A stretch of 64,000 bases of DNA from Candidatus Omnitrophota bacterium. GTDB lineage: Bacteria > Omnitrophota > Gorgyraeia > 2-01-FULL-45-10. Shown here one piece after another: positions 1 through 34,066 of the stretch. The notes under the pieces were generated by a model, which saw only the letters and a list, made by a program, of their open reading frames with translations, did no database searches and had not been told where the DNA came from. The translations under genes and the position numbers were made by a program. The stretch covers positions 5,037-69,036 of the forward strand of contig JAZDOS010000042.1 in the NCBI GenBank assembly GCA_043798375.1. Direction: 5' to 3'. Each line of letters begins with the position of its first letter. Position 1 is the first letter of the stretch.

Positions 1-98
1 GCCGGCATACATACGAGCTGCCTGTACCCGAAGCCAGATATAAATATACCGTAACAAGAGATTTTGACCGGGAGAAACGCGCGATTATTACCACCGGC

Positions 99-3000
99 GT
101 GGAACGCACGGTGATGTACGAGAAGGACAGGCTTCTTTTTAAAGTCTCGACGGACCTGATAAAGGGCGAGACCGAGGTCATAAGGCTCTATAAGTCAAAA
201 GAAGTGAACGGCGTTACATATAACAATGTCTATGAGACATTGTTATATGACAAATCCGGCAAAGAGATATTCCGCAAATACCATAAGATAACTTTCGACA
301 GGCGTTATAGAGACAGGGATATATGGACGTTCTTGTGGTCGAAGGGGGAGGTGCGGGATAAGGTCCATAATTATAAAGATAATACCGACAGGCTGGTAGT
401 ATACCTCCAGACAAAGGAGATAAAGCTGACGCCGGAATCGACAAGGATCGTCACGGAAACGAAGGAATGGACGGATAATGAAACCGGCTTAAGCCATTTC
501 GTAAAGATAATCACGACAAAAGACATGTTCGGCAATGTCATCAAGATAGATTCCGAATGGCGCGCGAAAGATCCCAAAAAAGGCGATATATGGAGCGACA
601 TGGGAAAACCCATGGAATATTATTATGAGATCATAACCGCCGAAACGAAAGAGCTTAAAAGAAACGGGAGCGCGGCGGCCGTCGTATACAGCGACGCAGA
701 AGGAAATCTCTTTGCCAATTTCGCCAAAGGGCCCCACGGCAGGCCGCGGAACGGCGTAGCGATACCAAAAGGCGCCAGATGGATAGTCCAGACGAAGCGC
801 GACACCGTCCGGCGCGAAGAGTCGTTCGGCATATATGACGCTTACGCCAAGCCCGTGTATCAGGATATCGATACCGGTTACTTCGGGAATGGTTTTGTTA
901 ACCAGGTATTGATCTATGATCCCGAAAATTCCACGATGGAGGAACACGCGCTTTTCAGGGAGAAGGACGAAGATAGGGGCACGGATAGAGAAATAGACAT
1001 ATTAGATAAACATTCCACGAAAGTCACCTATCACAATTCAGAAATAGCGGACACATGGCTTCTTTTAAGTGAAATATCGAAGAAGAGGATGTACTGGACC
1101 GAATACGAATATGATATCGATAGGGCGCTCAGCCGCTCATACGCCGGCGATAAGCCGGTCAGGAGCAGGACTTATGACTTACTGCTGCCGGAAGGCCGGA
1201 AAAGCAATAAGATGGAAAAGGGCGCCTTGATCGAAAATATGGCCTATATTTATGACGGCAGGAGCCAGAGCCGTCTTATCATAGATTTGAGCGATCGGCG
1301 CGGCCCTGACGGAGCGAAGATCGCGCCGGAAGAGCCTTTCAGGGAAGGCGAGGTTGTGACAGGCCTTATTACCCCTCTCGACATAGAGACTCTATGGAGA
1401 GAGGCGGAAGAGTTCGAAACACAAAAATGGAGGGCGCCTATTATAATAGGTAAGGACGGCGCTGTATGGATAGATACGGTCAAAGGCTCGCTTGTTGTCT
1501 ACAGGGTGCGGCTCGACCCCAATTTGTATGTAACGGTCCATCTTGAAAAGGGCCCTGCCGGAAAATATTCCGTGAAGAAGGCGTATATAGGCAGGGGCGT
1601 ATATGAATTCTATGGAGTGCACGGCAAAAGAAGGGTAAGAGAGCTGTTCAGTATCGACGAAAAGTTCATAAATATAAATCCCGGTACCGGCTCATGCGAA
1701 GTTGACCGGGATACGGGGTATGCGGTCATAATAAATCCCGAAACCAAAAAATCGGTAAAGGTTGATATCACGAAAGACCTCGGCGATATGGCGCCAGCCA
1801 TGTATCTCTATGATGCCGCCGATCCGAGCCTCGCATACTGCATACCGCTTACGGGCAGCGACTTTGAAAACGGCTATTTTTATCTTAACAGGATGCTTCT
1901 GGCAGGCGGTAATAAGCCGATGGCGAGGCTGAAGCTCGTTCCCGGTTCCGGTAATACGCGTCAGGACTTCGCGAAAATACAGGAGAAAGTCCGTTCCGAC
2001 AAACCGAGCGCCGAAGTGACCGGTCTTCCCGGAGGATTTGCCCGCGTGGATTGGATATACGCCACGCCCGAGCCGCCGGCAAGTTACAGGGATACCGGCT
2101 TACCAACGGTCGTCGCTATTACGGGAATCGAACAAGGCATAAAGGCCGGCAGGACAAAATTATACGCAAGCCCGATTGATGAAAATACGCAGGAAATCAG
2201 TAAATCGCTCGGCACAAGATATTTAGTCAGGAACAAATCCGCTCGCCGCATGTCGCTAAATACGCAGGGAATTGAAAAGATCGGTTCGCTTAAGAATGCG
2301 CGGACCGCCGGCGGCGTGCCCATCTCAGCATTCAGCGGAGTTCAGACGATGCCGGTTGAGGAAGATGTGCATTGGGAGAAGACGGATGTAACGGAAGAAA
2401 ATATATTGCCCTTATCGCAGGAGACAGGCGAACACCTGACGCTGAACGACAAGGGGAGCAAGGTTGTCCAATACTACACTCCGGATGACAGGCGGCTTAA
2501 GACCGAATATGAAATAGGCACGAGTAAAAACGCGATGAACCTTGTTTTGGGCGCCTTGAGCGGTTTAAAGGATCCTATTTTTAAAAGTAAGGCGGATATA
2601 GAAATTCTGGATTGTATTTATACAACCGCCAGGACGAATAGCCTGAACAGCATAAAGAAGCTGAGAGAATTTATCATCAATGCCATTGCCGTAAAGGACG
2701 CTTTTGAAAAGGTAACCGGAAAGGTACCCGTGACAGCTGAGAGCGCGGGTAATATCCTATATTATACAAGAGCGCTGATGATAGGAGATCCGCTTACAGG
2801 CGAGATCGCGGTAAGGACGGCCGATGATATGAAGAGTTTTGAATCCAATCTGGCTGCGTTAAGCGACGCCGTGCTGAAAGCTTTCAAGAACTTCGACAAG
2901 GAGGCCAAGACGCAAAAAATGAGAGATTTCATCGGCTTTGACACGGACGAAGGCAAATTTGTTTTAGGTAAACTTGTCCATTGGGCGAAGAACAAAAAAG

Positions 3001-6000
3001 ATTTTGTTTTTGAGGATTTCCTGGCCTCGTTTAACGGTATAATACGATATGAAAAAGAAGTGAATGATTACTTTAAAGCCAGGTATGCCACGGCGGCTCA
3101 AGAAGGAAAAGCTGCGAAACTGCCCGCGCAGTCGCGATTCGAGATCTTCGCCGACAAGATAACCAGCTTTGCCAGCCAGACCGCAGGCCTCTCAAGCGGC
3201 GATAAAAAAACATTTCTCGAAGTTCAGACGGAACGGCTTGATAAAAAAGATTATAAGAAGACGCAGGAAAAGATAAAAGCAAAGACACGATTTGCGCCTG
3301 CCTTAAAATGGCTCGGCCTTCCGGCTGTCATATTCGCGCTGATGGGAAATGCCGGTTACGCGGCGGATATCGCCGCGAAGCCGATAGCGAATGTTATAGA
3401 TATTCCGGGCGATATCATCGGCATATTTACCCATGCCCCGTATTTTTCACTTGCAGTAGCGGGCATATTGATAGCGGCCTTGATTTGGAGGATTTATAAA
3501 ACCGGGATTGATGAAAACAGGTATTGGAGCACAAGGCAGCAGCTTTACGCCTGGAAAACTCCGCCCCGGCAGGGACAGCCTCTATGCAATCCAAATCCCG
3601 CGTATGCGCGGATGTGGGATGAGATGGGCGCGGGTATTGCGGAGATGCGCCGGGCCATGTGGGATATATACAGGACGCTTGAGCCTTTCAGAGTTATGTT
3701 CTATGAGCCGAATTCGCCGTTATACGGGCGGGACACCGGGCCTCATATACCGGCATATAGATATGGTCCTTGGACATTCCTTACTTTTGCGGCCGGCGCC
3801 GGGTTAACAGTTGTCAATATCTGGAAGGCGGCCCAGACAGGATTATCGATAGGATACGGGCCATGGATATGGATTTTGGGGGCGGGCCTGATGCTGCTCT
3901 CCTTGATTAACGGTTATAAATTTATAGCCGATATGGCGCTGATTATCAGCCCGTCGTTGAGGCAAAGACGCCGCATGTTGGCTCTTCAGATAATGGAAAG
4001 CGAGATTGCGGTGCAAAGGCGGTATTTTACCAGCCTGATCAATAGCGGCGGATACGGATTCACAGCCGATCAGTGGCGCGAACTGTTGAAATTTCCGGCC
4101 CACGTTCCTTTTGGCGAACCGGATGATCAGAAGGAAATCAGGACTCAATACATATCGTTTATGGAATACCTTGATTACTGTGACGAATGGGTTAAATTCC
4201 TGAAGGAACGCAAAGATTACAGAGTATTCGCCAGGCTTCAATATCCGCCCGACCAACAGCGCCACGACGTAATGCCTACATTCTACACACAGGGACCGGA
4301 ATATTATATGGCGCATACCCCGGGTATAGCGCCGATAACAACAATCATGCCTGGGAATGAACAGGACCATCCGGGCTATCCTATAATAGGCGAAGCAGAC
4401 GCCCGGAACGGGTTCAGGCGGTATGCAAATACAACGAGACTGCCTATTCCGCAGCTTGGGCGCGTAAGAAACCCATATGCCGACCCCGTAGAGCCGCTTG
4501 TGCCGCTTAACAATATTTACGTCTATCTGGCGCATATAAGGGAAAGGGCCAGGCAGGCGAATGCGCTAGGCAATATAGGGCTTGTAACAGAACGCGAAGA
4601 GGTGGTCGCGGAGCTTTCAATCGGAGCGGTAAGCGGGCGTTACGGCCCCGGCCCGGAATCTACAAGTTACCCGAAACTTTTCTGGAAAAGGCATTTATGG
4701 CATAGCATGATATTCTTGGGCGTGGCGGCCGCGATAACGAAAGCCGCTTACGGATTCAGGCTTCATCTTGCCGCGCTGAAGATAGCCGAGGACATGCCTA
4801 TCATGACTCCGATGGCATTTACATCCGCGGAGATAATCGCCGCCGTTATAGGATTCCTGACGATTGTGGGAATATTCAAATATTTATTGTTCGGCGCCGC
4901 TTCCGCAGAGAGGCCGAGGCGGATAATGGCCCTGGGCGCTCTGGGCGGCATCGGCTATTTCCTCTATTCATACTGCAGTGAACCGATTATTAAAATCGCC
5001 AGGCTCTTTGACCGGATTTTACCTGATTCCGCGCATAATATATTTGACTATCTTGCCCAGCCTCAGGTCTTACCTTATACGATAATTGTTCTGGGCGCGG
5101 CAGCCGCAATCATCGGGATTTATTATCTTGTCGTGTCTTCCGGCGAACAGAGTAATGAGGTACGGGATCAGGATATTCTTGACCATACGCCGGACCATCT
5201 ACTTAGAGGAATATTGAACCGGGCTATCCAGGACGCTATAAACGAAGGCAAAGACAGGAACCTGCCCGGTATAGTACGAAATAGGCCGGCCGGCCGACGC
5301 CTGATCGGAGACAATGAGGATGTCAGGGCTATCTTCAGGGAAATCTCCGGTTCGTATAAAGGTTTGAGCAAAGCCTCAAGGCTGGTGAGGAATGAACCGC
5401 TGTCCGATTGGATTACTTACAGAATAAGAATGTCTTCCAGGACCGGCGAGGGGCATGCCCTTGCTTCTGTCATGGAAGTGGCAGATATTGTCAATAACGT
5501 CCGCGAAAGAGGACGCATAATACAGGTTCTCGCCGCGCACGGCTTCAATGTACAAGGCCTGCCGGCCGATCCTCCGGTGGACCGGCGAAGCGGCCGCGCG
5601 ACGAACATGGATATAGCAGAGAGGCTGACACTTGCCGACATGGATAGGATAGTAAACGACCCTGCCATAGCGCACGAGATATTTGAAGCGGTCGTTCTGA
5701 TGGATACGGTTTTCGGAAATGCGGCGGCGCAGGTCCGCGCGACACTCGAAAGCGCAACGAACAGCTATCATGGCCGTGTTGACATAGCATTGTCGATGGA
5801 CGACGATGATCCCGGGGTTGACGCAATCCGCCAGGCCATGCAGCCGGGCGGTATACTTGCCCCTTACGCGGATAATATCATAATCTATACGGGTTCAAAC
5901 TGGGGGTCTAACCTTGGCAAGAACCAGAGGAAGGCGCGCATGAAACCTGTCCTCGACGTCGAAACTGTCAAGTACCTCAAGAAGATTTACGGCGAAAGAC

Positions 6001-9000
6001 GCGCCGCATGCCCCGACTATAAACTGCCAGGATTTGTTGAGCTTGTCGACCAGGAAGACAGGCTAGGCGCGCTTCTCTTAAAGTCGAAGACGCTTCTGTG
6101 GAAGATGTATGACCGGACGGTCAGCGATGAGATTGCCGGCCGAAGGAACAGCGGTGATCGAAGAAGATGGGGGATAAAATTTAACGGCCTTGGCGGAGCG
6201 CAGTGGAAACTGCGCCTTACATATTATCTGACAACGGCCAGGCTTAGAATAGCTGCGTGGGGCGCCGCCCCCGACGCGGACGGAGACGCCCGTGAACGCG
6301 CGGCATTTATGCTCAATGCCTTCAGGCAGGTTTACGCGAACGCGGACTATTTTGCCGAGTCGGAATTCAGGACAAGGAGCGTTCCCGCCATTATTCAATC
6401 GGAACTAAGGCTTGTTTCCGACAAGAGCCCGGCGCATGCCTACATGTCCCATTCGGATTATCTCTTATGGCATACGAAGATACAGGTCGGCCAGACTAAC
6501 AATGGATTTCTGTTCCTCGGAGGTACCGGAAACGGTTTCCTGTGGGATATGATAGCCGGAGAGGAGCTTGATGGAAGCGGCAGAGCGCTCTGTTATTTGA
6601 ACGACAGGGCCAGGCTGCAGGACATGTTATTTCCGTTGAGGCAGAATATCGAAAGGGAAGAGACGAGGATGGCGGAATTTTACGCGGGCTTTCCGCTGCC
6701 GATAAGGCTCATGTTTCACATTATAGTGCATCCGATAAGATCAATATTCGATCCTTCCGTAAAAAGAACGCGTGTTCCATCAGGACTTTTAAGAAATTAT
6801 CTGAATACCTATAACATAAGCGGAGCGTGGGATCTTTACAACATAATCGAAGACTCGGAACTCGGAAGACGGCTCCCTCTGTATCAACTGAAAGCTACCA
6901 GGCTTGTGGGGCCTTTTACGCAGATACTCGAAGACCTGTTGCCGGTCATGGGCGCTCCATGGTGGCGTCAGCGCTCAAGGTGGATAATAATGCAGACCTT
7001 TGCCGTTACTATAGCGCACCCGGCGGCTTTCTTCATGTTCTTTGGCCAGTATATCGGTTTGGCTCTCGGCTGGATGATGTTTGGAAGCGCCAACGGTTTT
7101 ATTTTGCAGGGGCTTGGCGCGGGTCTCGCCGGCTTCGTTATAGGAGGTTTCGCCTTCTACTATATAGGGCATATCGTAAACGGGCTTCTTATATTGGCCG
7201 GCTGGAAAAGGAATGCCCAATGGCAGGTAGACCCTGTCAAGGCCATGGGTTACTGGAGGTTTCAACATGTCGCGCATCTCGCGGCCGCAACGCCGGCCGT
7301 TGTAGCCACAACTTTAACGCTTATACTTACCATTCTTTACGGTATAGCCACGGTAGGAAATGTTCCAGGGCTGGAATTTATGGGCGGCGGGCTGGGCGCC
7401 TTTATAGTGGATGCCGTCAGGTTCCTGCAGGTCTATGTTCCTTTTGTGAACGGCTGGCTTCCCACAGTATTTATAGGAGCTATCGTATTCTTTATCCCTC
7501 CGTTTATGCAGGTTATCCAAGGCATGATCGCTACTCTGCAATATGATATACAGGATGAAGAATCGACGACCGAATCTATCAGGGTTTATCTGACAGAGGC
7601 CGGCGATACGCCCATGATAGGGATCGCGGACATGCATGCCGATACGATAAATACGAACATAGTTGTTCCCGGCCGCGTCATAGCGGGGCATTATTCCAGA
7701 TTCTCGGACGACGAATTCGTAATAAATTTCCTTAATATGTATATTCGAGAGGCCGCGGCAGCGTGTAACCATGCCGTTGTGGGTATGCCCAATAACGCTT
7801 TCGGCTGGGCCGACCTGAACAGAAACTGGAGAAATGGTTTAGATCCAGCCAATCCTGACCATATACAGATTTACAGGCGCGCGCTTACTGAAGCGATAGA
7901 TTTCGCGCACGGGCTAATAACAAAAATCCGCGGCGATGTCAGATTCTCCTGGAAATTTTTTGCGTTCGGCGCCGCGCTCTTTATCGTCAGCAATTACCTG
8001 ATGAGCACAGGCTGGTTCTACGCGGCTCTTGGAAACTACGCGCTGTGGACGGGTCTTGCGATAATGATAGCTGCAATCCTGACACAGGTCGTAAGCCGTG
8101 TTCCAAGGGCGCGCAAGAGCATCTATCGTTTGAGTTCCATCGGAAGAAGGCCCTACCATGCCTACCATTACTTCATAAGACAAATTTTAATGCTGCCGTA
8201 TTACATGAATCTCATAATTGCCGGCATCCTCAGCCTGTTCATGACCGTAGACAGGTATCAGGGGGAGAATTTCTGGACCAGAGGAAGGCAGGGCCTTCAA
8301 CCGCCAAGGTATGGCGAAAGAGGAAGCCTGCGGCAATACAGAAATATACTCTCAAATTGGTTAAGCACAAACTGGCTTATATTGGCGCTTCTATTTGTGC
8401 CCATCTATATTATAGTCGGTGACCCGATGGTCAAAGTTCATCTCAAACCTAAAATGATCGGCAGGCAGATTACGCTTGAAATAGAGAGGGAGTATCAGAA
8501 CCATATATCAGGCGACTATAATCTCGATTCGTCCGAGATATACGGCATTCTGCGCTCCGATCCTTATATATATGTCCAGAACGGATGGGTTGAAGGCAAG
8601 ATAAAAGTTTTTGACGAATACCTCGCCAACCACATCCGGAGCGGCAACGCCGAATCTCTCAAGTCAGCCGAGACGACACTCGCGTGGATCGTCGAGGGTA
8701 TAAGAGCCGGGCAAGATTATATAAAATCTGAAGGCGGCGATGACGCCGAGGCCATAAAAGGATTCGAAGAGCTTGCAGAAATTTTCTTCGCGCTTTGCGC
8801 CAAATACAATATTCTCGACCTGTACTATCAGGTGCTTCCAGCCAAACCTGAAGTTATCGACGCCGCAAAATTCAAGATAGAGACGGACAACGCGGAAGCC
8901 AGGATAACAAAGACAGGTAAAGACGGTTCTTTTGAGCTTAAATGCTCGATCGATGGAAATGTATCCGGGAACGCCGGCTATGTTATAGTGAAGGCGGATC

Positions 9001-17265: not shown

Positions 17266-17287
17266 TAAAAAAGTAAGAATTAATGGC

Positions 17288-17316: not shown

Positions 17317-17354
17317 TTTATTACTTTAACAGCTCTTATTTGTTACATATATAA

Positions 17355-17386
17355 CCTCAAAGGTTGCCTTTAGGCAACCTTTGAGG
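17355..17386 (+). repeat. 5'-leader hairpin of the AGGTTGCC/GGCAACCT palindrome family, between the promoter and RBS of giant gene 2
   Basis: cctcaaaggttgcc ttta ggcaacctttgagg. The same core recurs at 48304-48341 and 57415-57542. Confidence 0.7.
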
Positions 17387-17411
17387 TTGGCAAATTGTAA
17401 GGAGATAAAAT

Positions 17412-23400: not shown

Positions 23401-26400
23401 CGCACATACCGGACGGAATATTTGAAGGACTGGGAAGGCATGACTCAAACCCAAATATCCCGGATAACCTGCGTATCCTCATACGGAGAGTCTTCGATAA
23501 CAAGGCAAGTATGGGGGAGGCCTTTGACGCCGACGGCGACAGGCTCGGCGTTATTTCAAGCGAAGGCGACTATCTGCAGGGCGACGATATAGCGTGCCTT
23601 ATAGCTCCCGTACTTATAAAGATGAGAAAGGAATTGACCGGCAAAGAACCGGTCGTTATCGTCAATAATCTCTGCAGTGATCAGCTGAAACAAGTTATCA
23701 GGGAGGCGGGCGGTAGGGCGGTTGAATGCAATGTAGGTTTCACTAATGTAAAAGCGAAGATGACCGAGTTAAGAGATCAGGGTAATGAAGCGATCATGGG
23801 CGTGGAGCTTTCCTCACACATTATGATGGATATGAATTTCGACTCGGATGACGCGTTTTTCGCATCGATTGTGCTTATAGGCATATTGAAACAGAAGGCC
23901 CGCGAGCTTAGCGTGACACCGCAGGAGGTAATGGGGCTCATGCGGAAGGAATTAAATGCCAGATATTTTAAGGTAAATCCCATAGGAGAGGGCCGCGTAT
24001 TGATGTTAACAGACGATACGCGCAAAGAGGCGGCCGCGAAAGCAGTGGAAGAATGCAAGAGGAGGATCGGCGATCCAGAGTATCAGTATATATACGAGAA
24101 GAATCCTGATAGGGAGACGGAAGACCTGGAACGGGAAGGCGGGATCAAGATAGATGTAAAAGAGAGAGAGACCGGCGAGCTTATGGGTTGGTTTGTTATA
24201 AGGCCGTCCGGTACCTCGGCGGAGATAGTCGTCACCGCGGAGTCGGTAGTCGGCGTCCATGCCGAATCGGAGGCAAATGCCATTATGAACGCCCATAAGA
24301 TCAAACAGGAGGTGATAGACCTTCTCCGTCCTTATGAGAGATGGGTTAAGGTTGACGAGATACAGCCCTCGGACTTTGGCGCTGTCTTCAAAGCAAGGCT
24401 CGAAGGCAAGGATGTCTCTGAAGTTAGAGCTGTCGAGAGAGCTGATATCTTCAGAAAATCAGTCGGCATGCTGGCTGTGGGGCAGGCAGATGAAACGCCG
24501 CTTACGCCCGGCGCGGATGAAATAATCGCGTCGATTATGGAAGAGGTTGTGGTGCCCGAAGGCATAAGCGAAGCGAGGAACGCGGCGGCGGGAGAGCGAT
24601 TGATGCAGGAAATAAAGGGTAGCCTTCCCGGCGAGCATACGGATAGGATCGCCTCCATATATAATGAAGTGGTAGCGAGGGTTAAAGCGGCGCGTCTCGG
24701 GACCCGCATAGCCGCTCAGGAAACGACCGCGCAGTTTCTCGCAACTCAGGAAGTGAGGGACGTTACGGTTAATGGGGAAACAGGCGCCCTTATTGTGCCG
24801 TCATCCAGCGATTACAAGGACAGGGGCCAGCACGATTCTACTTACATGAAACTAAGGGGCCTGGCCGCGAATGCCTTGGTTAGCGCGCGGAAATTGTTCG
24901 CGCGGCACCAGTATGAGACGGTTTATTCCATGAACCACGGCGCTCTTCCGATCCCGGAGACGTTGAGGCAATTGGCGTCTTATAACAACGTAAGCCCGGA
25001 AAATTACAGGATTCACGATACATTCTTCCCGCAGGTGAATCCGCTGTTCCCGGGAAGCATACAGTACCAGGTTACGGGCGCCCATTACCAGGCGAATGTC
25101 TTTGACATAAAGTATGTTACCGAGGGTAAAGGCCTGCAGTATCTTGTAAAGGTTGACAGGAAGGCGTTTGAGGAGACCGGCAAGGTCGTCGTGGTCGATA
25201 CGATCGTGCAGGAGATGGCGCCCGGCAAATGGGTATACGCCCTGCCCGGCTATATAGATATAGTGGTGAATAAAGGGGCATTGAGATTTAATGATGTTTC
25301 CTATGAATTGAGCCCGCAGGAACTGGAAAAACTCGAAAACGAGACCGGCTTTAAAATAGATATGGATACGAATTTCTATGAGAAACTGCCGGCGAAAGGG
25401 ATGGCGCATCTATTCTACATGTATAACGGCGAGACGCGTGTTGCGCTCAACCCCGAAGTTATGCCCGAAGGTAACCTCAATATAAGGGTAATGTCAGCTG
25501 GCCTTCCGACGATGGCCGAAAAAGAACTTAAAGTAGGCCTCATGGAGATTTACGCGGCCAATCCAGGCATAGTTCAGTCCATGATGTCGCTTCGATATCT
25601 TGAGACAGTTAATGAGAAGATGCCGTTTGCGCCTGCCATGATACAGGCAATTCATCCGAAAGAAACCATCGTGCCGGAATCGATCGATGTCTTGAATAGC
25701 AGCGCTCAAGAAGCGGCCTTATTCTTTGAGGCATTAGAACAAGAGATCGGGCAAGGGAATCCTATAGAATTCTTACCCAATGTGAGATGCGGCAGGAAGA
25801 ACAATCAGACTTGGGGCGTGCCTGTCAGCGTGTCGATGATACTCGAAGGGCTGGGGGCTCGAACTCGGCAGGAAAAAGAGGCGCTTGTCGATAGGCTTAA
25901 GATTGATATCGATGATGTGGTGAGCGAGCTCTGGATAGGCGCGGACATGGAGCATCCGTCAATGGTAAATGTAAAGACAAAGTATTCAGCGCCTGTATAT
26001 GTGCTATTCGGTAATTATCCCGAAGAAACTTTCGGCAAGGATCATTTAGACGCATTCGGCCGGGATTTCGGCTTGTTGATAAAACACCTCAATTCGGCCA
26101 GATACTTATCCGCCCAGAACCATGTATTTACCGAAGGGGTAATACCTTTAAATAAAGAATCGGTTGCGGTGATGGGATTCGCGAGAGATATAGGGCCCCA
26201 GGAATTGGAAGAAGAATTGATCCGGGGAAAAGAAGAATCGCTTAATAGGGTTGTTCTTATGGAGGGAAAACCCTATCTTGTTCCCAAAGGCATGATGCAT
26301 GCCTATGGGCCTGTCAATGTCCTTGAGATAAAGGAACAGAGCCTTGGAAAACCTGATACGGGTATGACCAATTCCATATATGATAGGTTAAGCGTGCCGG

Positions 26401-27611: not shown

Positions 27612-28135
27612 TTAAACGGTTGCGGTTGCGCGGCTCGCCACGGTTTTCGTTTATCGTAAAACGTTATGGAAGAAAAGAAAACCATCAGAAGTTTTCATGA
27701 TTTGGAAGTTTATCAAATTGCATATCAAGCGATGCTTGACGCATTTAAACATATTTTGCCCAAACTGCCTTCAGAGGAGAAATACGACTTGGTTGATCAG
27801 CTCAGACGTTCGACCAAAGCCATTCCTCGCTTGATAGCAGAAGGGCATTCTAAAAGACATCAGAAAAAAGGCTTTCAAAAATACCTAGATGATGCAATGG
27901 CAGAATCTAACGAAACAATTGTTTCATTGACCCAGGCGAAAGATTTATATTCTTCAGTGATTGATATAAAGATATGCGAAAGTCTAATAGATAATTACGA
28001 TAAGATAAGCAGGCAGTGTTATAAGTTGGGAATTGCTTGGGATAGATTCGGCGATCGTAAATTAATCGACGCAACCGATAGACGATAGACGAAACGAGCA
28101 GCGCAACCGATAGACGAAAGACGTAACCCGATAGG
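27612..28135. mobile_element. Full-length copy of an inverted-repeat element that carries a four-helix-bundle ORF. It is the parent-like member of a 6-copy family; five ORF-less ~100-bp copies lie elsewhere in the window
   Basis: Left arm cggttgcggttgcgcggctcg (27616-27636) is the reverse complement of right arm acgagcagcgcaaccgatag (28094-28113). The AT-rich cargo ORF lies between GC-richer flanks. The short copies keep both arms and the 'gttatg' start context but lack the ORF. Confidence 0.6.
27666..28088 (+). CDS. Four-helix-bundle protein (TIGR02436 / 23S rRNA intervening-sequence protein family, PF05635-like)
   Basis: FHDLEVYQIAYQAMLDAFKHILPKLPSEEKYDLVDQLRRSTKAIPRLIAEGHSKR matches the family hallmark ..FeDLevWqkA..l...iY.lt..fPkeEkygLtsQlrRAavSIpsNIAEG..R. 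Confidence 0.75.
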   Translation: MEEKKTIRSFHDLEVYQIAYQAMLDAFKHILPKLPSEEKYDLVDQLRRSTKAIPRLIAEGHSKRHQKKGFQKYLDDAMAESNETIVSLTQAKDLYSSVIDIKICESLIDNYDKISRQCYKLGIAWDRFGDRKLIDATDRR

Positions 28136-28144
28136 AATTCGACA

Positions 28145-31100
28145 TTGAATAATATTATGCGGAAATACAGAATTATCATCAACACCCTGGCCTGGCTTGT
28201 CATAATAAGCCAGGCCTTTACGCTAAGCCCCGTGTATGCCGACTCGCTCGCCACTCCCAAATTAACCCATCCCGACGCCAATCAGGCCAGAGCCATATCC
28301 AACCTTGCTGAGTTCGAGGTATGCTACGGTGAAAGGCTTTTATATAAGGGTGAAAAGCTTTCGTCCGTTAATTCCGTTTTAAAAAATAGATTTCTGGACA
28401 GGAAAAAAGTTTATTTGAATGAACCGTCTATCCTGGTGCGGGAGAATCTAAAACTCGGTCAAGTTGAATTTATAAGCTACGACAGAGAGAAACAGGCGGG
28501 CGTCTTTAGGTTTAAAGGCAAACCGGACAATTTATATACGGTAGCGCTTATTCCCAGGCAGGGCAAGTACTCGATAACCCTTCATAAGAATTCCTCCGGC
28601 TCGGCATCTCAAAGCCTTGCAAAAACAACTGATAGTCAGGATGAACCCCTCACCGGACACGGGTTCAGCGTGGAGGATGTCAACAAAGTCAAGCTTACGG
28701 CATGGAGCGAATCCGGCGCTTTCAGGAAGGTCATGGATGAGCTCGAAGATATTTTAAAAGCCCGCGCGCCGGATAATCTGAAAGAACTGCTTTTTTATAC
28801 CCTGTCGGCATTTAAAGAAGGCCGTGACGGCCGGCAGCTCGGTTACACGCCCGCCCGCTACAAAGACCCGGCTCATTATTATCTCGGTTTCGGGACATCG
28901 AGATCGATATGCCTCGCCTCCGAATTCCTGGATGAAGAAAGCCCGTTATCGAAATTTGCCGCCGAAGAGCTGTTTCACGAGTTACTGCACGCGGCAATGG
29001 ATATTTCCAAAGACGATTCTTACATCGAGAGCGAGACGGCCAATCATATAACGTCGCTCAGATTGGCCGCGCAATTTTTCTGGGGATTGCCGGAAGAAGA
29101 AGCGCTCTCCCTCTCCCCGAATATGCTCGAGCACCATTCCAGGAACAGCCTCGGCGACGCGATAAGGCTGTGGAAGACGGAACAGCAGGATATACGCGAC
29201 GCCGTCCTCAACAATAAACCGCTTGAATTGAAAAAGATGTTAGTCGACGCGTTAAAGAGAATCGGCAATAATCCGTCGAAACTCTTCGATATTCTCGCCG
29301 TCTGCGATGCCGCGTCGGACGAGATGAAAAGGCATCCGATACAGAGCCGCTATCCTCTGCTTATGGCGGTAACCTTACTGAATAGGAAGCAGAAACTGCA
29401 GCTTGTTAAAGCGGTTAAACAGGGCGGCGATGCTATCGCGGATCTTAAAATAGCGGATTCCGTTCTCCTTATGCTGGAGAAGAAGGTGCGGCCCGATTGG
29501 TTGGGGCACCAGGCGCCCAATCTAAAAGGAAGAACCGTATGGCAGGTTGCCTCGGAGATATGGAATCCCGGCGGAGGGTTAGGGCGCGTAATGCAGTTTG
29601 AGGCCTTTTCTTTCCGCGACATGTTAGGCCAATGCGCGGGCGATGTCCGTCTGAGAACCATAGAACCCCATTACGCGTACGGAAAAGACGGAGTGCCCCT
29701 GGATTACGATAAGATACTCGGCGCTTACGAGGGCAAAGAAGAAAATAGGCTGAAAGAAGTGGATACTTTCGAAGTAACGGTTGGTGACGAGACAGCAATC
29801 GCGGTATGTTCACGCGCCCTCAATCAGCATGGGATCGAAAGTTATATAATTAAGCTCCTCAAGAGGGGCGCAGACGGCAGCCTCTCCCCATATTATACGG
29901 AGGGCATGTATCTTTATCGCGGCGCTGAAGCGCCCGCCGCTGTTCCGATAGAAGATTTTTCCGCGTTCTTCTCTGCCGCCTCGCTTGAGCTTGTCGCGAG
30001 AATTGAGGCAGGGGAAAAAAAGGCTTCCGAGGAAGCCTCATCCTTCTGGAACTATCCGGTCGTATATTTTAATGACGGCCAGCTCGGGCTCGCTCCGTTA
30101 TTCCGCCGGGCGTTCGAACATTTTTCCAATAACCCGATTCTCAAGGAAGCATTAGTCGCTTACAAGACTCACACCTATCCGAACCGGGTCTTTTTCGATG
30201 TGCGCGAGAAGAACGGGGATGAGGGGTATGGCATAAAAGTCCTGAAGCGCTTCGGGATACCGGAAAAATACTGGGAGTATTTTACCCATGTTATCGGTGA
30301 AGAACTGAGCCAGGAGACGAGAGAAGTAGCCGATTTTACATCGGCGGGCCTGCGCTCGGCGGACTGGCAGGCAGGCGTAAGCGCCAAGCAGGCCGACGAC
30401 GTATCGATGTATGACGACTGGGGAAAGTGGAAAGATTTCTTCGAGCTTGTAGCCATAACAAACGGAGATTACCTGCCGATCACCGAATCCCGTTTTGCCG
30501 AGGCCGCCAGGGAAGCGCTCGCGGCCGCCGACATCGAAAGCCTGACCCCCATGCAGGTCTTTGTGGCGAACAGGCGCGCGAAAGAAAACCTGAACGCCTT
30601 TTTGATCAAGCGGCTCGGCGATAAGTATATTTTCGGGATAAGCCCGGACAAACCCGTTCTTTCATATTCCGGAAGGGGTGTTGACGAAAAAGCCGGAAGG
30701 AACAGGGCCCTGTCAAACAGCAACATCATAACTCTGGTGAAGATGGGCGTCCAGGTGGTGATAGGTTTTAATGTCCAGAGCGAGAAACATAACAGGGACG
30801 AGCTGGATAAACTTGCCGAAGAATTGCGCGAGGCAAAAAGCAAAGATCCGGACGGTTACCCCGGCAATTTTATATTTGTCCCCGACAGCGACATAGAAAT
30901 TCAGAGGCTTATCCTTGCCGCTTCAGACGCTCAGGTCCAGGATTCGGATCCGAGGACGGAGGCCGCCGGTTATACGGAATCGAATATAAAAAGGTGCGCC
31001 GGGTTGCAGATAGCGCCGCCCTGGCCCGAGGGAATACTGCAGGCAGGCATCCCCTTTAATTTTAATAAACTCGGAGAAGGGGCTACCATTATTCCGGAAA

Positions 31101-34066
31101 TTACCCTGTCGGAAAGCGATTTGAAAAAATTGCGGCGCGGCGCCTATGATCCCGAGCTGAATAAAAGAGTGAGCCATGCTTACCTTGAATCGTATAAGAA
31201 ACTATTTTCGCTGGGTTATAAGGACGAGGCGGGCCTTGATGAAAATATTCTGGCTAACCTGCGTCAATTGTCGCACCATCAGGCTAACGCGATAAAATTG
31301 AGCCGCGTCTTCGACGCGTGGCTCACTGTGGCTGAAGAGATGCGGCAGTGGTCGGGCGCGATAGAGAAAAGGTTCCCGCGGCCCATAGAAACTCCGCCTG
31401 AAAAACGCGTGGTAATGCTCATATCGGGCGGCGAATCGCCGGGGGTGAACGATTACTTCTCGCTTATGGCAAAGTCGCTCGCGAAGCAGGGCTGCTCCGT
31501 GGAGGCCGTGAGATTCGGGTTGGACGGGCTTGTCCGGGCCAGTGTAGAATTCGACGGAAATCGCGTATGGATCGACTGGGGTAAATCCGAGAATATACTG
31601 CACGCGCCGGGCGCTTTTGAAGGGACCGCGAGGGTAAGGCTCGATGACGCGGGCATGCAGGCCCTGTTGGATAATCTGAAAAGTTATTGTAAAACGCTCG
31701 TCGTCATCGGCGGAAATGACCATCTGGGCGAAGCGGAAAAGATAGCGAAACGGTTAAAATCCGAAGATTCCGATATGGCCGTAGTGGCGCTTCCTAAGAC
31801 GATAGACCGCGATACGAAAATTTATCCGATCGGCGCCGATACCGCCGCCCGGAACGCCAACAAACTGGTTTTGCGCGCGGCGGCCCTGCCGGGATCCGGC
31901 AAGTGCGTTGTCGTCCAGATGATGGGCCGCGACATGGGCTATTTCGCGGTAAGGGCGGGAGATATGAAGCCGAAGGTTCGGGACGGTTATACCGACGCCG
32001 AGATAAATAAGATGGATATTGTCCGGCCCACCGTCGCAACGCTCGTGCCAAATAAGCCGGTACCGCTTTCGGATGTAATTGACGCGGTCAGGGTAAGGAT
32101 GAAGAAATACGGCGCCGCGACGCTCGTCATATCGGAAGGATTCAGGCTTTCCAGGATCACAAGGGACTCGTCCGGAGTTTTTAAATGCGATAGCGATAAA
32201 TTGCTGGAGGGCGCCCTCGAGGATAAATTATTATCGGCAAAACTCGCGAACCTCTCTACCGATGAGCAGGGGAACCCTAATCTCAGCGGACTGGTTGTGG
32301 CGGACTTTCTCGCGGAAGTCCTCGCCCGGGACGAAGAATTAAAATTGATAAGGGAAGAGAACCTGTTGCTTGAAAACCCGAATTACAGCTTCAGGGCTTC
32401 CGCGCCAAACAGCCTTGACCGCGCCGTCGCGGATAAAGCGATCGACTTAGCGAGCCGCGTAATATCAGATCCGGACGAACGCGCGAAGGCAATAAATGCG
32501 GGCGGTGTATGTATCGCCGCAAAGAGGACCGTTTCCAAAGCGGAAGACGTCGAAGTGTCTGTCATACCTTTATCCGAGGCGACAGGAAAGGTAGGCCTTG
32601 ATGACAGCGGCCTCTATACGGATGAGGAATTGTCCGAAAGAAACGTTATCGGATATGCCTCGCCGACAGATAACCTTCCCGATATGCCCGAAACCGAAAG
32701 CCCCGCGCATCCAGCCGGTTATAATAGAGAACATGCCATCATGTGGTTAAATTCCCAGGCGGAATCCGCGAGCGAGATGCAGGCAAAAAGGGGTGATGGC
32801 TGGAGAAGGCCGAATATATGCGTTATCGCCAGGCCGGACGCCGACGATATCATATCGGACCTGAAATACAGAAAGGCCGTATCCAGGGCCGATGAGTACA
32901 TAATGGAGAGGATAGGGAAAGCGACCGTATATATCCCCGCGCTCGAGCCCGTATCTCTATTGGCCATAATAAGGAAGTCGTATGAAGCCTACAATAACTA
33001 TCATATGCTCAATTTGGTGCTGGCGGGGAATATCGAGATCGATAAAAACGACGCTCTGCTGGCAAGATTAATGGAGAACCCTTCCACTAAAGACGCGTGC
33101 GGGGCTATTGTCGGCGGCGCCAGGCATTCCGGAGGAGACAGGTTGATATTCGGAAGAAGGCTCGCGGATCTTATTTCGATGGTTCTTTCTTCGTCCGAAT
33201 CCGTCGCGGCGCTCGCGGCGTTCGGCGAAAAGGCGGGATCGCCCATGACCGATATAAGGACCAATATTCTCGGGGAATCGCTGAACTTATTGCCCGGCGA
33301 GAACGGCCAGCGCATTAAGGCGATCGCCGCTTCTGTTACCGGGGCTATGCCTCAAGCCGAACCGGCGGTTGTAATGAGCGATGACGATATTAACGCTGTG
33401 GTAGAAGCATCCTCCGACGCGGGCGAAGACGCCAGGAAGGCCGCGGAGGCCGAATTCCCCGGCGAAATGCACCTTGTATTCGTCAGGAAGGCGATCCCCG
33501 ATATTCAGCAATCGACTACAATCGCGATGAACGTCTTAAATCTCTGCAGGGAATATTACGCGGATAAACTCGAAGGTTATACCGTTGATATCGTCGACGA
33601 TCACAAGGCCGCCATGGAGCTTCTCGCGAGAAATCCCAACTGGTCCAGGAATGATACAATAATAGGGCTTGTCGATAAGGAAAGCCTTGAAGAGCTGGCA
33701 GGTGAGCTTGAAGCCGGCAATATGACGGATAAGGCAAAGATATTATCGATGCAGAAGGCGGATGACGGCCAGTTTGTTCCCATCAAGCCGTTTTTTGACC
33801 TCATGGCAGCTATCGTGAGGATCAATAGGCCTCTCGACAGGGTGGAAGACAGGGATCTCATCGATTATATCAAAGAGCTGTTAATAAAGATCGGAACCAG
33901 GGATATAGACAGGCTTACCGAAGTCCTTGCCTCTGCCGACTTCCACGATCCTATCCGATTTGCCAGGGACTTTATTATAAGGCTGCTGCCTCCGGCAAGA
34001 AAATTCGACACGACAACGCTGAAAAAACTCTACCAGGCCTCCAAGCTCGTCGTCGAGTCGCTGTAA
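28145..34066 (+). CDS. Giant secreted multidomain protein (1973 aa from the TTG at 28145; the alternative ATG at 28157 gives MRKYRIIINTLAWLVIISQAFTLSPVYADS) with an embedded GT-B glucan phosphorylase/synthase-like segment and a phosphofructokinase-like domain
   Basis: Signal peptide; uninterrupted 5.9 kb ORF; motifs listed under the sub-features. Confidence 0.8.
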   Translation: MNNIMRKYRIIINTLAWLVIISQAFTLSPVYADSLATPKLTHPDANQARAISNLAEFEVCYGERLLYKGEKLSSVNSVLKNRFLDRKKVYLNEPSILVRENLKLGQVEFISYDREKQAGVFRFKGKPDNLYTVALIPRQGKYSITLHKNSSGSASQSLAKTTDSQDEPLTGHGFSVEDVNKVKLTAWSESGAFRKVMDELEDILKARAPDNLKELLFYTLSAFKEGRDGRQLGYTPARYKDPAHYYLGFGTSRSICLASEFLDEESPLSKFAAEELFHELLHAAMDISKDDSYIESETANHITSLRLAAQFFWGLPEEEALSLSPNMLEHHSRNSLGDAIRLWKTEQQDIRDAVLNNKPLELKKMLVDALKRIGNNPSKLFDILAVCDAASDEMKRHPIQSRYPLLMAVTLLNRKQKLQLVKAVKQGGDAIADLKIADSVLLMLEKKVRPDWLGHQAPNLKGRTVWQVASEIWNPGGGLGRVMQFEAFSFRDMLGQCAGDVRLRTIEPHYAYGKDGVPLDYDKILGAYEGKEENRLKEVDTFEVTVGDETAIAVCSRALNQHGIESYIIKLLKRGADGSLSPYYTEGMYLYRGAEAPAAVPIEDFSAFFSAASLELVARIEAGEKKASEEASSFWNYPVVYFNDGQLGLAPLFRRAFEHFSNNPILKEALVAYKTHTYPNRVFFDVREKNGDEGYGIKVLKRFGIPEKYWEYFTHVIGEELSQETREVADFTSAGLRSADWQAGVSAKQADDVSMYDDWGKWKDFFELVAITNGDYLPITESRFAEAAREALAAADIESLTPMQVFVANRRAKENLNAFLIKRLGDKYIFGISPDKPVLSYSGRGVDEKAGRNRALSNSNIITLVKMGVQVVIGFNVQSEKHNRDELDKLAEELREAKSKDPDGYPGNFIFVPDSDIEIQRLILAASDAQVQDSDPRTEAAGYTESNIKRCAGLQIAPPWPEGILQAGIPFNFNKLGEGATIIPEITLSESDLKKLRRGAYDPELNKRVSHAYLESYKKLFSLGYKDEAGLDENILANLRQLSHHQANAIKLSRVFDAWLTVAEEMRQWSGAIEKRFPRPIETPPEKRVVMLISGGESPGVNDYFSLMAKSLAKQGCSVEAVRFGLDGLVRASVEFDGNRVWIDWGKSENILHAPGAFEGTARVRLDDAGMQALLDNLKSYCKTLVVIGGNDHLGEAEKIAKRLKSEDSDMAVVALPKTIDRDTKIYPIGADTAARNANKLVLRAAALPGSGKCVVVQMMGRDMGYFAVRAGDMKPKVRDGYTDAEINKMDIVRPTVATLVPNKPVPLSDVIDAVRVRMKKYGAATLVISEGFRLSRITRDSSGVFKCDSDKLLEGALEDKLLSAKLANLSTDEQGNPNLSGLVVADFLAEVLARDEELKLIREENLLLENPNYSFRASAPNSLDRAVADKAIDLASRVISDPDERAKAINAGGVCIAAKRTVSKAEDVEVSVIPLSEATGKVGLDDSGLYTDEELSERNVIGYASPTDNLPDMPETESPAHPAGYNREHAIMWLNSQAESASEMQAKRGDGWRRPNICVIARPDADDIISDLKYRKAVSRADEYIMERIGKATVYIPALEPVSLLAIIRKSYEAYNNYHMLNLVLAGNIEIDKNDALLARLMENPSTKDACGAIVGGARHSGGDRLIFGRRLADLISMVLSSSESVAALAAFGEKAGSPMTDIRTNILGESLNLLPGENGQRIKAIAASVTGAMPQAEPAVVMSDDDINAVVEASSDAGEDARKAAEAEFPGEMHLVFVRKAIPDIQQSTTIAMNVLNLCREYYADKLEGYTVDIVDDHKAAMELLARNPNWSRNDTIIGLVDKESLEELAGELEAGNMTDKAKILSMQKADDGQFVPIKPFFDLMAAIVRINRPLDRVEDRDLIDYIKELLIKIGTRDIDRLTEVLASADFHDPIRFARDFIIRLLPPARKFDTTTLKKLYQASKLVVESL
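29500..30900 (+). other. GT-B fold alpha-glucan phosphorylase / glycogen-synthase-like segment (GT35/GT5-like) in giant protein 3
   Basis: VASEIWNPGGGLGRVMQF resembles the KTGGLGDV / SGGLGVLAGD glycine loop of glycogen synthase and alpha-glucan phosphorylase. Confidence 0.3.
31390..32130 (+). other. 6-phosphofructokinase-like (PFK family) domain in giant protein 3
   Basis: VVMLISGGESPGVND (GGDAPGMN-like), LVVIGGNDHLGEA (GGDGS-like but altered), ALPKTIDRDT (PKTIDND), QMMGRDMGYFA (MGR motif). Confidence 0.65.

Follow-up and report, generated by a model that had tools for sequence, protein, structure and literature searches.

The DNA analysed here, hereafter the window, is a 64,000-nucleotide stretch of contig JAZDOS010000042.1 of a Candidatus Omnitrophota bacterium. 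Bases 3-34066 are filled by three tandem open reading frames (ORFs) on the + strand, G1, G2 and G3, which are followed by genes for glycan utilisation (Table 1). This three-gene cassette is the 3' part of a Candidatus Omnitrophota 'giant gene' locus. The ORF listing of the window places the three genes at 99..17108, 17412..27605 (3,397 aa) and 28145..34066 (1,973 aa); in the other frames of the same region no ORF encodes more than 239 aa. Read from base 3, the G1 frame has no stop ahead of base 99; G1 therefore continues past the 5' boundary of the window and encodes at least 5,702 aa. Its closest homolog, P0137, aligns with it from P0137 residue 292 onward, which suggests that about 290 aa of G1 lie outside the window and that the full-length protein has, by homology, about 6,000 aa. 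For G3, the ORF listing begins at a TTG codon (28145; 1,973 aa) and the NCBI annotation at an ATG codon (28157; 1,969 aa); residue numbers of G3 are counted here from the TTG. At about 49% GC, a random frame has a chance of about 4.7% per codon of meeting a stop, so the 5,700, 3,400 and 1,970 stop-free codons are not due to chance. G2 and G3 are identical to NCBI proteins, both encoded on one 70,979-bp contig of a Candidatus Omnitrophota metagenome-assembled genome (MAG). Together with significant Pfam domains, these results uphold the initial annotation, made from the letters alone, which had described three tandem giant genes and guessed at Omnitrophota as their source. Employing BLASTP at 1e-3, we found no internal paralogy among G1, G2 and G3.

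Table 1. Features of the giant-gene cassette and its surroundings (coordinates are those of the window; aa, amino acids; GT, glycosyltransferase family; PMI, phosphomannose isomerase)
Feature	Coordinates	Strand	Details
G1	3..17108	+	polytopic membrane megaprotein, at least 5,702 aa; 5' end cut by the window edge
G1 predicted transmembrane region	3309..9590	+	aa 1103-3196; about 18-21 helices by hydrophobicity scan
G1 putative divergent GT2 synthase-like core	6768..7139	+	aa ~2256-2379; IIEDSELG and QRSRW directly before a transmembrane stretch
G1 conserved block	9345..10070	+	aa 3115-3356; HExxH as RHEFAHL (aa 3320-3324); 45% identical to P0137
G1 HD-like segment	10143..10322	+	PF01966, E=0.0013, 19.4 bits against a 22-bit cut-off (below threshold)
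G1 MbnB/TglH/ChrH (DUF692) TIM-barrel-like domain	11241..11723	+	aa 3747-3907; PF05114, E=4.7e-9
G1 NAGPA phosphodiester glycosidase domain	13698..13889	+	aa 4566-4629; PF09992, E=9.4e-7
G1 segment earlier called HIT/GalT-like	14022..14963	+	aa ~4674-4987; CPLC...HRHYHWQ; 55-56% identical to P0137
G1 HAD (Cof-type, Hydrolase_3) domain	15012..15851	+	aa 5004-5283; motif I DLDGT; PF08282, E=3.6e-13
G1 C-terminal module	16005..17105	+	aa 5335-5701; 68% identical to the P0137 C-terminus
G1-G2 intergenic region	17109..17411	+	four palindromes and a near-consensus sigma-70-like promoter (17288-17316)
G2	17412..27605	+	scaffold protein of 3,397 aa bearing a signal peptide and enzyme cargo; NCBI MFH0764513.1
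G2 signal peptide-like N-terminus	17412..17483	+	MIFRK, 17-residue uncharged hydrophobic core, AFA/VP
G2 N-terminal module	17529..18971	+	aa ~40-520; predicted TIKI/EreA/ChaN-like core with a ~300-aa helical insert
G2 HExxH motif	19851..19865	+	NHEKAHLDIF; aa 814-818; kept in the 4 homologs covering the region
G2 ManC-like mannose-1-phosphate guanylyltransferase domain	20496..21413	+	aa 1029-1334; PF00483, E=5.3e-19
G2 phosphomannomutase/phosphoglucomutase domain, subdomains I-IV	22626..24287	+	aa 1739-2292; Pfam
G2 class I PMI-like cupin	25851..26381	+	aa ~2814-2990; ELWIGADMEHPS ... LVPKGMMHAYGP; PF20511, E=0.0065, weak
23S_rRNA_IVP four-helix-bundle family small ORF	27666..28088	+	140 aa; PF05635, E=1.1e-18
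G3	28157..34066	+	1,969-aa signal-peptide-bearing protein; NCBI MFH0764515.1
G3 N-terminal conserved domain	28646..29518	+	aa 168-458; HExxH (H278, E279, H282) and invariant H301
G3 putative GT5 (glycogen/starch synthase)-like core	29552..31372	+	motif SEIWNPGGGLGRV; homology to PF08323 regions of relatives
G3 phosphofructokinase domain	31406..32431	+	aa 1088-1429; PF00365, E=3.8e-26
G3 C-terminal module	33362..34063	+	aa 1740-1973; common to the C-termini of 18 G2-family proteins
beta-mannan/glucan utilisation locus	34134..57392	+	Pfam

G2 is a member of a large family whose common part is its N-terminus. Its homologs number in the hundreds and are 2,000-5,500 aa long. All 119 homologs listed share aa 1 to ~520 of G2 (45-86% identity), always at their own N-terminus; the ManC/phosphoglucomutase core is shared by only about ten of them and the C-terminal ~600 residues, including the PMI-like part, by about 30. 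Searching 1.84 billion representatives with a profile of the N-terminal module (N-module) retrieved 9,515 clusters with E<=1e-3, or 6,037 with the stricter E<=1e-30, and in each of the 150 best profile matches the module lay at residues ~1-550. Among species-representative genomes, 161 stretches encode the N-module, with two copies in some genomes. The 80 stretches that we kept are nearly all labelled Omnitrophota or come from TPA bins labelled 'Planctomycetia'. Many TPA bins carry the latter label, and one locus (L084) is labelled 'Actinomycetes bacterium'; such labels probably reflect binning or labelling problems rather than real spread. At six loci (L019, L078, L082, L084, L009 and L031) the ORF with the N-module measures just 520-710 aa, either on its own or separated from the remainder.

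Signal-peptide and transmembrane (TM) segments were called with crude hydrophobicity and layout rules. By these rules, 110 of 120 G2-family N-termini show an n-region with K/R, a core of 14 or more uncharged residues and a site resembling AxA, with the consensus ..FLLSN[IV]AFA/xP (the slash marks the predicted cleavage position). The N-terminus of G3 is made up of a segment rich in K/R, a hydrophobic core and VYA/DS. The signal peptides attributed to both proteins on first inspection are thus canonical in layout. Neighbours that are clearly secreted, for example the CBM27 proteins, have N-termini of the same style as G2.

Downstream of the signal peptide, the N-module has five invariant residues, D71, H73, C74, E101 and H469. 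It gave no Pfam match at E<=0.01, including TraB, Erythro_esteras and Cofac_haem_bdg, and no match in sequence searches against PDB with a single query or a profile. An AlphaFold2 model built from 18 sequences (pLDDT 80.5) shows a parallel beta-sheet core flanked by helices and split by a helical insert of ~300 residues (aa ~156-455). Structural comparison matched the model to HopBA1 (score 10.1), two Ere-like proteins of B. cereus (9.6 and 9.4), ChaN (9.5), EreC (9.0), a TraB protein (8.1) and RRSP (7.4). All of these belong to the TIKI/Ere/ChaN/TraB superfamily, with about 150 core residues aligned; a Foldseek search of the model against PDB returned nothing significant, EreC having the best probability (0.54). 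D71-A-H73, E101 and H469 follow the order of the 2His/2Glu site of the superfamily, and the 28 residues between H73 and E101 equal the spacing in RRSP (H3902-E3930). Compared to the RRSP site (E3900-x-H3902, E3930, H4030), G2 has Asp in place of the first Glu, and it differs from the superfamily also in the invariant Cys that follows the first His and in the split core. A TIKI/EreA/ChaN-like fold is therefore moderately supported, and the N-module is probably a hydrolase head with a putative Asp/His/Glu/His site, whose chemistry we infer. The superfamily includes the secreted effectors RRSP (a MARTX domain) and HopBA1. The initial annotation of this protein had missed this conserved module. 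In Foldseek, the helical insert (~17877-18776) had non-significant matches (E 0.07-1, probability <=0.14) to the alpha-pore-forming toxins AhlB, SmhB, ClyA, YaxA and MakE; the likeness may come only from the long helical bundles found in both.

A conserved HExxH motif is present in each of the three proteins. In G3 it lies in the N-terminal conserved domain, which is predicted to be a minimal zincin-like fold followed by a helical domain; FHELLH is found in 13 of 14 G3 relatives, with an invariant His downstream. In the conserved block of G1, RHEFAHL has its counterpart in RHEYAHL at the matching position of P0137. These modules, the GT2 synthase-like core of G1 and the synteny described below were absent from the first inventory of the locus.

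Gene order is conserved around the family: a giant gene is followed by a G2-family gene, sometimes by a G3-family gene, and then by a glycan locus. We compared 34 loci with about 10 kb of upstream DNA. In 20 of them the whole flank is taken up by an ORF on the same strand, which stops 150-300 bp short of the G2-family gene; upstream ORFs of the other 14 measure 1.9-6.4 kb. Seven loci with gene calls have one or more upstream same-strand giant genes encoding 3,733 to 9,926 aa, with GT2, NAGPA, PPDK/PEP-utiliser, radical SAM, HD, GDPGP1_N, GGDEF, NDK and GH2 domains. G3-family genes share a contig with G2 homologs in at least six cases and, in L001 and L004, lie directly 3' of the G2-family gene, followed as in the window by GFO/IDH/MocA, AP_endonuc_2 and ABC genes. 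Glycan-utilisation genes come next in most loci with visible downstream DNA. In at least 12 other loci, the giant ORF upstream closes, at its 3' end, with a counterpart of the C-terminal module of G1 (28-35% identity). This module and the N-module of G2, located at adjacent gene ends, are the two most conserved pieces of the cassette, and may dock with each other. The C-terminal module of G3 also occurs at the end of the G2-family gene in L024; inspection of the C-termini by eye revealed no MARTX-like, type IX secretion system (T9SS), PEP-CTERM or LPXTG sorting signals. In L086 (21861-30533), a CBM11 gene and, beyond it, a second giant gene (9,457 aa) come after the G2-family gene, which shows that giant genes can lie on either side of such a cassette.

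Within this order, whole domains come and go. G1 contains whole-domain inserts relative to P0137 (HD plus DUF692, ~880 aa; HAD) between blocks of 45-68% identity, and P0129, a G3 relative, has an extra ~1,400 aa carrying ROK, Fe-ADH and SIS between blocks conserved with G3. Based on a tally of precomputed Pfam annotations, the cargo of 120 G2-family members includes PGM-type domains (about 92 members), UDPGP (11), CofD (9), NTP_transferase (8), cupin GPI (6), PGI (5) and PFK (5); PGK, transaldolase, FBPase, ROK, HAD, epimerase and PRK are also seen. These comparisons show conserved scaffolds, with entire enzyme domains gained, lost or transferred among the three genes.

In G2 itself, the ManC-like guanylyltransferase and ManB-like phosphohexomutase recognised by the initial annotation were both recovered with significant scores. 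The ManC-like domain matched the mannose 1-phosphate (Man-1-P) guanylyltransferase of T. maritima (PDB 2x5s) at 6.4e-19, and its motif AGGGGERMWPLS, of the GGxGxRLWPLS family, is intact and reads GGGGERMWPLS. For the phosphoglucomutase/phosphomannomutase (PGM/PMM) domain, Pfam matches were significant for PGM_PMM I (8e-10), II (5.5e-9) and III (2.7e-12) and weak for IV (E=0.0029). A sequence search of PDB aligned its catalytic loops with those of P. aeruginosa PMM/PGM (5e-21). It keeps the phospho-Ser and His (TASHLP vs TGSHNP, the Asn of SHNP being replaced with Leu), three metal-binding Asp residues (FDADGDR), the sugar loop (VELSSH) and the phosphate loop (IRPSGTS), and DxDxD[RK] is kept in 16 of 17 close homologs of the domain. 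The PMI-like cupin, considered possible at first, drew weak matches: PF20511 (PMI_typeI_cat) with 17 bits against a 22-bit cut-off, and TIGR00218 (manA) with E=1.9e-5 and 24 bits against a 116-bit cut-off over the N-terminal catalytic part only, both far below the curated cut-offs. The manA match was the only one, itself weak, returned by NCBIfam for ten unannotated segments. Together, ManC, PMM/PGM and the weak PMI-like cupin would make up the route linking GDP-mannose, Man-1-P, mannose 6-phosphate (Man-6-P) and fructose 6-phosphate (F6P).

The phosphofructokinase (PFK) domain predicted for G3 was confirmed by Pfam and matched PFKs in PDB at about 1e-8. Its motifs read SGGESPGVN, IGGNDH, PKTIDRD and MGRDMG: TIDRD and MGR are kept, GGDGS is changed to GGNDH and PGTID to PKTID. 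The K of PKTIDRD and the D of GGND look like the signature of the pyrophosphate (PPi)-dependent type, beside which there is one extra change, D to N. The segment once described as glucan phosphorylase/synthase-like gave no Pfam match to GT5 or another glycosyltransferase in G3 itself; G3 aa ~470-770 maps onto PF08323 (starch synthase) matches (about 1e-8 to 1e-7) in three relatives, P0125, P0124 and P0122, which makes the synthase part of the call an indirect one. In this core (aa ~470-1076) the counterpart of KxGGL reads PGGGLGRV, with the Lys lost. The alterations in the mutase (TASHLP) and PFK (GGNDH) motifs are present as initially claimed, and had led to the proposal that some domains may be binding modules. 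The key catalytic residues are mostly kept, and the altered motifs, though real, are no proof of inactive domains.

G1 is colinear with P0137 (4,677 aa; NCBI 'glycosyltransferase', Candidatus Omnitrophota) in six blocks of 29-68% identity. It has no exact entry in the protein database; its C-terminal 2,701 aa retrieved one homolog, P0137, and a PDB search with its C-terminal 3,201 aa gave no match at E<=0.1. A Kyte-Doolittle scan combined with a search for charge-free stretches found 12 such hydrophobic stretches between aa 1103 and 3196, which we read as about 18-21 TM helices, in keeping with the figure of about 20 given earlier. The number of helices between the GT2-like loop and the C-terminal tail is 10-13, a count too uncertain for parity. 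The GT2-like core of G1 is 29% identical to P0137 aa 2288-2415, a region that matches PF13632 and PF13641 at 1e-11; G1 alone reached only E=0.69 for PF13632. In the region compared with processive GT2 synthases (aa ~1900-2380), ED (aa 2283) and QRSRW (aa 2323) are 40 aa apart and immediately precede a hydrophobic/TM stretch. G1 thus appears to carry a divergent GT2 synthase-like core, a call resting on P0137.

In the C-terminal half of G1, the HAD domain (as HAD/Hydrolase_3, for the claimed sugar-phosphatase) and the DUF692 domain proposed at first were found by Pfam. The DUF692 domain is within the ~880-aa insert absent from P0137; the HAD domain is likewise missing from P0137 at the matching position, and a 24%-identical copy occurs in the G3-family gene of L004. 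The NAGPA domain is present in P0137 too. The proposed HD segment scored below threshold. A HIT/GalT-like reading of aa 4674-4987 was not supported (DUF4922 at E=0.065, no PDB match and no phmmer link to GDPGP1_N), and a motif resemblance, CPLC and HRHYHWQ, is all that remains of it. The initial picture of ORFs, TM helices, signal peptides and most domains held, most domains having significant E-values in the search against Pfam.

The genes downstream of the cassette form a beta-mannan/glucan utilisation locus. It starts with two GFO/IDH/MocA genes, a xylose-isomerase-like TIM barrel, ABC permeases, GH130, MFS_2 and a standalone PGM/PMM, continues with GH113 plus F5/8, a response regulator and a histidine kinase, CBM27, GH113 and CBM27, and ends with GH94, GT2, ROK and a solute-binding protein. 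In other genomes, too, these gene sets come after G2-family genes. The clustering of cassette domains at the F6P/Man-6-P/GDP-mannose node, continuing into mannoside utilisation, was rightly noted at the outset (GH130, GH113, CBM27 and MFS_2). The standalone PGM/PMM (40903..42579) is unrelated to the copy in G2 (30% identity over 84 aa); like GH130 and GH94, it has no signal-peptide-like N-terminus. GH94 (cellobiose/cellodextrin or beta-1,2-glucan type) is followed by GT2 and ROK at 50183-53820 within the mannan locus, which may handle more than one glycan.

The cargo appears to follow the neighbouring sugar. Wherever DNA downstream of a ManC-bearing member could be seen, in four cases (the window, P0007, P0013 and P0089), it contained a GH113/CBM27 mannan locus; P0013 and P0089 are only 37-39% identical to G2. 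In three loci whose glucan genes are of the PF10091/GH94/CBM11 kind, the cargo is UDPGP/PGM, cupin-GPI or PFK. As a lead, from a small number of members that are orthologs and so not independent, the cargo may match the sugar handled by the downstream glycan genes, here beta-mannan. The known enzymes of the GDP-mannose pathway (ManA, ManB, ManC and bifunctional PMI-GMP enzymes like AlgA) are soluble, 300-500 aa long and located in the cytosol. G2 unites ManC-like, PMM/PGM and PMI-like parts of the same pathway, and the adjoining GH113 mannanases, CBM27, GH130 phosphorylase and transporter correspond to the Man-1-P-producing steps of the GH130 mannan route. Unlike the soluble enzymes, these parts are domains of a 3,397-aa signal-peptide-bearing chain with hundreds of unannotated residues between them.

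Omnitrophota are widespread, ultra-small, uncultured bacteria, most of them probably host-dependent, and their giant proteins are among the largest known. The initial annotation stated that the architecture matches no described system, which is not the case: two bioRxiv preprints already describe sugar-phosphate enzyme domains in Omnitrophota giant proteins upstream of glycan genes. West-Roberts et al. (2023, 10.1101/2023.11.21.568195) reported giant proteins, termed 'Archaeovorins', that have numerous TM helices along with glycosyltransferases, peptidases and, less commonly, PGM/PMM, PGI, FBPase, TPI and aldolase domains; loci resembling type II secretion systems/type IV pili (T2SS/T4P) precede their genes, and solute-binding proteins, ABC transporters and glycoside hydrolases follow. 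Nielsen & Lui (2026, 10.64898/2026.06.07.730766) defined a class called 'multi-enzyme metabolic cluster' and, as 'Module 2', a set of Pfam families for sugar metabolism, and found TM helices or a signal peptide in 94% of long Omnitrophota proteins, including a signal-peptide-only class. Giant ORFs with few domains were noted by Seymour et al. (2023). A limited search, of passages of these papers and by text query, turned up neither the three-gene cassette nor the match of cargo to locus, and neither the HExxH modules nor the family with the TIKI-like N-module. The present analysis adds the G2 family with its TIKI-like N-module, the conserved gene order, the domain swapping, the ManC-mannan match and the mostly kept catalytic residues.

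Archaeovorin loci share with the present one the phylum, a polytopic megaprotein with glycosyltransferase-like and peptidase-like modules, embedded PGM/PMM and other glycolytic/gluconeogenic domains, and the kind of genes that lie downstream. The Archaeovorin class was defined on proteins of >30,000 aa, whereas here the content is spread across three genes and G1 reaches about 6,000 aa; G1 has the many TM helices, whereas G2 and G3 have an N-terminal signal only. Pfam found no match to the SecA_DEAD and N-terminal C39 or S8 domains of Archaeovorins, nor to NUDIX or methyltransferase domains, in G2, G3 and the visible 5,702 aa of G1, whose N-terminus lies beyond the window. With the multi-enzyme metabolic clusters, the cassette shares diverse enzyme Pfams tiling one chain, among them PGM/PMM, starch synthase, ROK, HAD and HD. 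G1 contains four or five enzyme families, G2 two or three and G3 one or two, with no dominant repeat. The published counts of that class cover proteins of at least 10,000 aa (a threshold deduced from the corpus statistics), compared to about 6,000 aa for G1 and 3.4 and 2.0 kaa for G2 and G3.

MARTX toxins offer another comparison. They too are very large secreted proteins with conserved ends and swappable central enzyme domains, and one of their effectors, RRSP, has the TIKI fold. Pfam found no match here to their type I secretion features, glycine-rich repeats or cysteine protease domain, and G2 and G3 have Sec-type N-terminal signals instead. MARTX cargo consists of toxins, whereas the cargo here consists of central-metabolic enzymes. 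Delivery of the megaproteins into another cell is pure conjecture.

We favour, at a probability of roughly 0.4, an exported, tethered enzyme array that faces the envelope or prey, over a metabolon at the membrane's cytoplasmic face. G1 would be a polytopic inner-membrane megaprotein with a divergent GT2 synthase-like core and a long tail of sugar-phosphate and phosphoester enzyme domains. G2, with a Sec-type signal peptide, a TIKI/EreA/ChaN-like module of ~500 aa and interchangeable cargo (ManC, PMM/PGM and the weak PMI-like cupin), and G3, in which a signal peptide precedes a zincin-like HExxH domain, a GT5 core resembling glycogen synthase and a PFK with the PPi-type signature, would be exported via Sec and kept, together with G1, at the envelope or facing prey. 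There the array would interconvert hexose phosphates and nucleotide sugars released at the cell surface or the predator-prey interface, its products would feed the neighbouring import and phosphorolysis pathway, and the built-in hydrolase modules may process or anchor the chains. Export, catalytic activity, site of action and cooperation of the three proteins are inferred in this proposal. Export is favoured because of the conserved signal peptides, the secreted-type hydrolase modules, NAGPA and the published link to secretion loci.

Several points weigh against export. ManC, PFK and related kinases and uridylyltransferases need GTP, ATP, UTP or PPi, which are not expected in the periplasm or outside the cell. 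GH130 and GH94, which would supply Man-1-P and Glc-1-P, are cytoplasmic, as they have no signal peptide, and a standalone PGM/PMM stands beside these phosphorylases in the locus. The cargo/locus match, with its few and orthologous members, fits intracellular catabolism at least as well as export. The alignments behind the structure models are shallow (18 and 10 sequences). The sugar-phosphate enzyme domains of the giant proteins have been predicted to be extracellular, predictions that West-Roberts et al. themselves doubt (10.1101/2023.11.21.568195).

The nucleotide need, the cytoplasmic phosphorylases and the cargo/locus match are what speaks for the metabolon at the cytoplasmic face, which we consider rather unlikely but the strongest of the rivals. 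The N-terminal segments of G2 and G3 would then be uncleaved anchors or unused for export, with the bulk of the proteins facing the cytoplasm. Such a metabolon would channel what mannan import and phosphorolysis yield (from Man-1-P via Man-6-P and F6P to fructose 1,6-bisphosphate) and would also feed GDP-mannose or other nucleoside diphosphate sugars to the GT2-like part of G1 and the GT5-like part of G3 for a storage or coat polysaccharide. All cargo enzymes are normally cytosolic. ED...QRSRW before a TM stretch in G1 is as in processive GT2 synthases, whose catalytic domain is cytoplasmic, P0137 matches GT2 Pfam models, and GT5 glycogen-synthase-like regions occur in the G3 family. Nielsen & Lui read the sugar-metabolism module as compatible with the cytoplasmic face (10.64898/2026.06.07.730766); their reading concerns TM-only proteins, whereas G2 and G3 are of the signal-peptide-only type. 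Opposed to a cytoplasmic location are the 110 of 120 family N-termini in which positive charges, a core of about 15-18 residues and AxA form the layout of a cleaved Sec signal, which predicts translocation. NAGPA, TIKI-like and zincin-like modules are typical of secreted proteins, and the standalone PGM/PMM, unrelated to the G2 copy, already serves the catabolic route.

An extension of the exported array to the whole phylum seems improbable to us. By it, at least 9,500 clusters, almost confined to Omnitrophota, would be exported 'metabolic effectors' on swappable scaffolds, their cargo tuned to the adjoining glycan locus. Intact PMM/PGM, NDP-sugar pyrophosphorylases, PGI, PFK, PGK and transaldolase would act in the cytoplasm or the leaking contents of the prey or host, and would turn the nucleotide sugars and hexose phosphates of the victim into forms imported by the ultra-small predator.

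The domains could also be inactive, enzyme-like modules for binding sugar phosphates or glycans, for adhesion or for surface-coat structure. The altered motifs (PFK GGDGS to GGNDH and GGD to GGE; PGM SHNP to SHLP; GT5 KxGGL to GGGL) and the weak family scores of several domains are consistent with this, an extracellular site would deprive the domains of cofactors, and adhesion or coat roles have been published as ideas for giant ORFs. Still, we give it a slim chance: the Ser, His, three metal Asp residues and sugar and phosphate loops of the mutase and the P-loop-like ManC motif are retained and conserved among homologs, as are TIDxD and MGR of PFK and DxDGT of HAD, and the cargo forms coherent pathways matched to the adjoining locus, which mere binding modules would not need.

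About as slim is the chance that the chains are polyprotein precursors cut into ordinary-sized enzymes by their own hydrolase modules (the TIKI-like module of G2 and the HExxH modules of all three), giant size then serving co-translation and co-targeting; this could be combined with either localisation. Conserved putative protease modules in all three proteins and the N-module as a separate ORF in L019, L078, L082 and L084 agree with it, and West-Roberts et al. proposed autocatalytic cleavage of giant Omnitrophota proteins from C39 and S8 domains (10.1101/2023.11.21.568195). Against cleavage, the putative protease modules come with no cleavage sites or peptidase family membership, the TIKI superfamily also holds esterases and haem binders, and the long conserved non-enzymatic scaffolds point to the importance of an intact chain. 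An artefact (chimeric assembly, pseudogenes or non-coding ORFs), to which a MAG contig and the missing database entry of G1 might hint, is practically negligible, given 33 kb without a stop, significant domain matches along all three ORFs, and an architecture and gene order that recur at 35-85% protein identity on many independent assemblies from other samples.

The locus bears on a question raised in both preprints, whether sugar-phosphate enzymes of the cytosolic type are active outside the cytoplasm. Activity outside would amount to an unusual kind of central metabolism, extracellular or directed at prey; activity inside, to a membrane-tethered metabolon for glycan catabolism and polysaccharide synthesis. 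The window offers a compact three-gene giant locus whose small pieces are tractable for study. The N-module marks thousands of related proteins, with enzyme domains exchanged like cassettes and cargo apparently matched to the adjoining sugar genes.

The sigma-70-like promoter between G1 and G2 (TTGACA-17-TATACT, 11/12 matches) is about 100 bp upstream of G2, and perfect palindromes with arms of up to 24 nt lie after the G1 stop and before this promoter. G2 may thus have its own promoter instead of being co-transcribed with G1. The 23S_rRNA_IVP ORF is an insertion between G2 and G3, outside the megaproteins, and is bracketed by a 34-nt imperfect inverted repeat (27623-27656/28076-28109). In L004 a member of this family is between the upstream giant gene and the G2 homolog, and at the P0007 locus after the GFO gene; the differing positions suggest a small element that is mobile or prone to insertion.

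Rfam and tRNA scans of the window found nothing. A hairpin family, AACCTnnnAGGTTGCC - loop - GGCAACCTn'n'n'AGGTT, occurs in intergenic DNA at 17223-17249, 17353-17388, 48304-48338, 57414-57448 and 57476-57518 (10 half-sites observed, 0.02 expected). Its central triplet varies, always with a compensating change on the other arm; two cases are just 3' of a stop codon, and none is followed by a T-run. It was not found among 87 related loci and therefore looks lineage-specific and REP-like. The + strand carries all gene-like ORFs of the window (1-64000), and 31 of 32 2-kb bins have a positive GC skew, a strong strand bias over 64 kb. Beyond the glycan locus, an arginase-family gene, probably for agmatinase, and the pyruvoyl-dependent arginine decarboxylase gene immediately after it (59955-61552) form a compact pair for polyamine synthesis. 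The gene at 61618-62796 encodes a 392-aa protein in which HypF is represented by its C-terminal Kae1-like domains alone (HypF_C and HypF_C_2), without the acylphosphatase, zinc-finger and YrdC parts.

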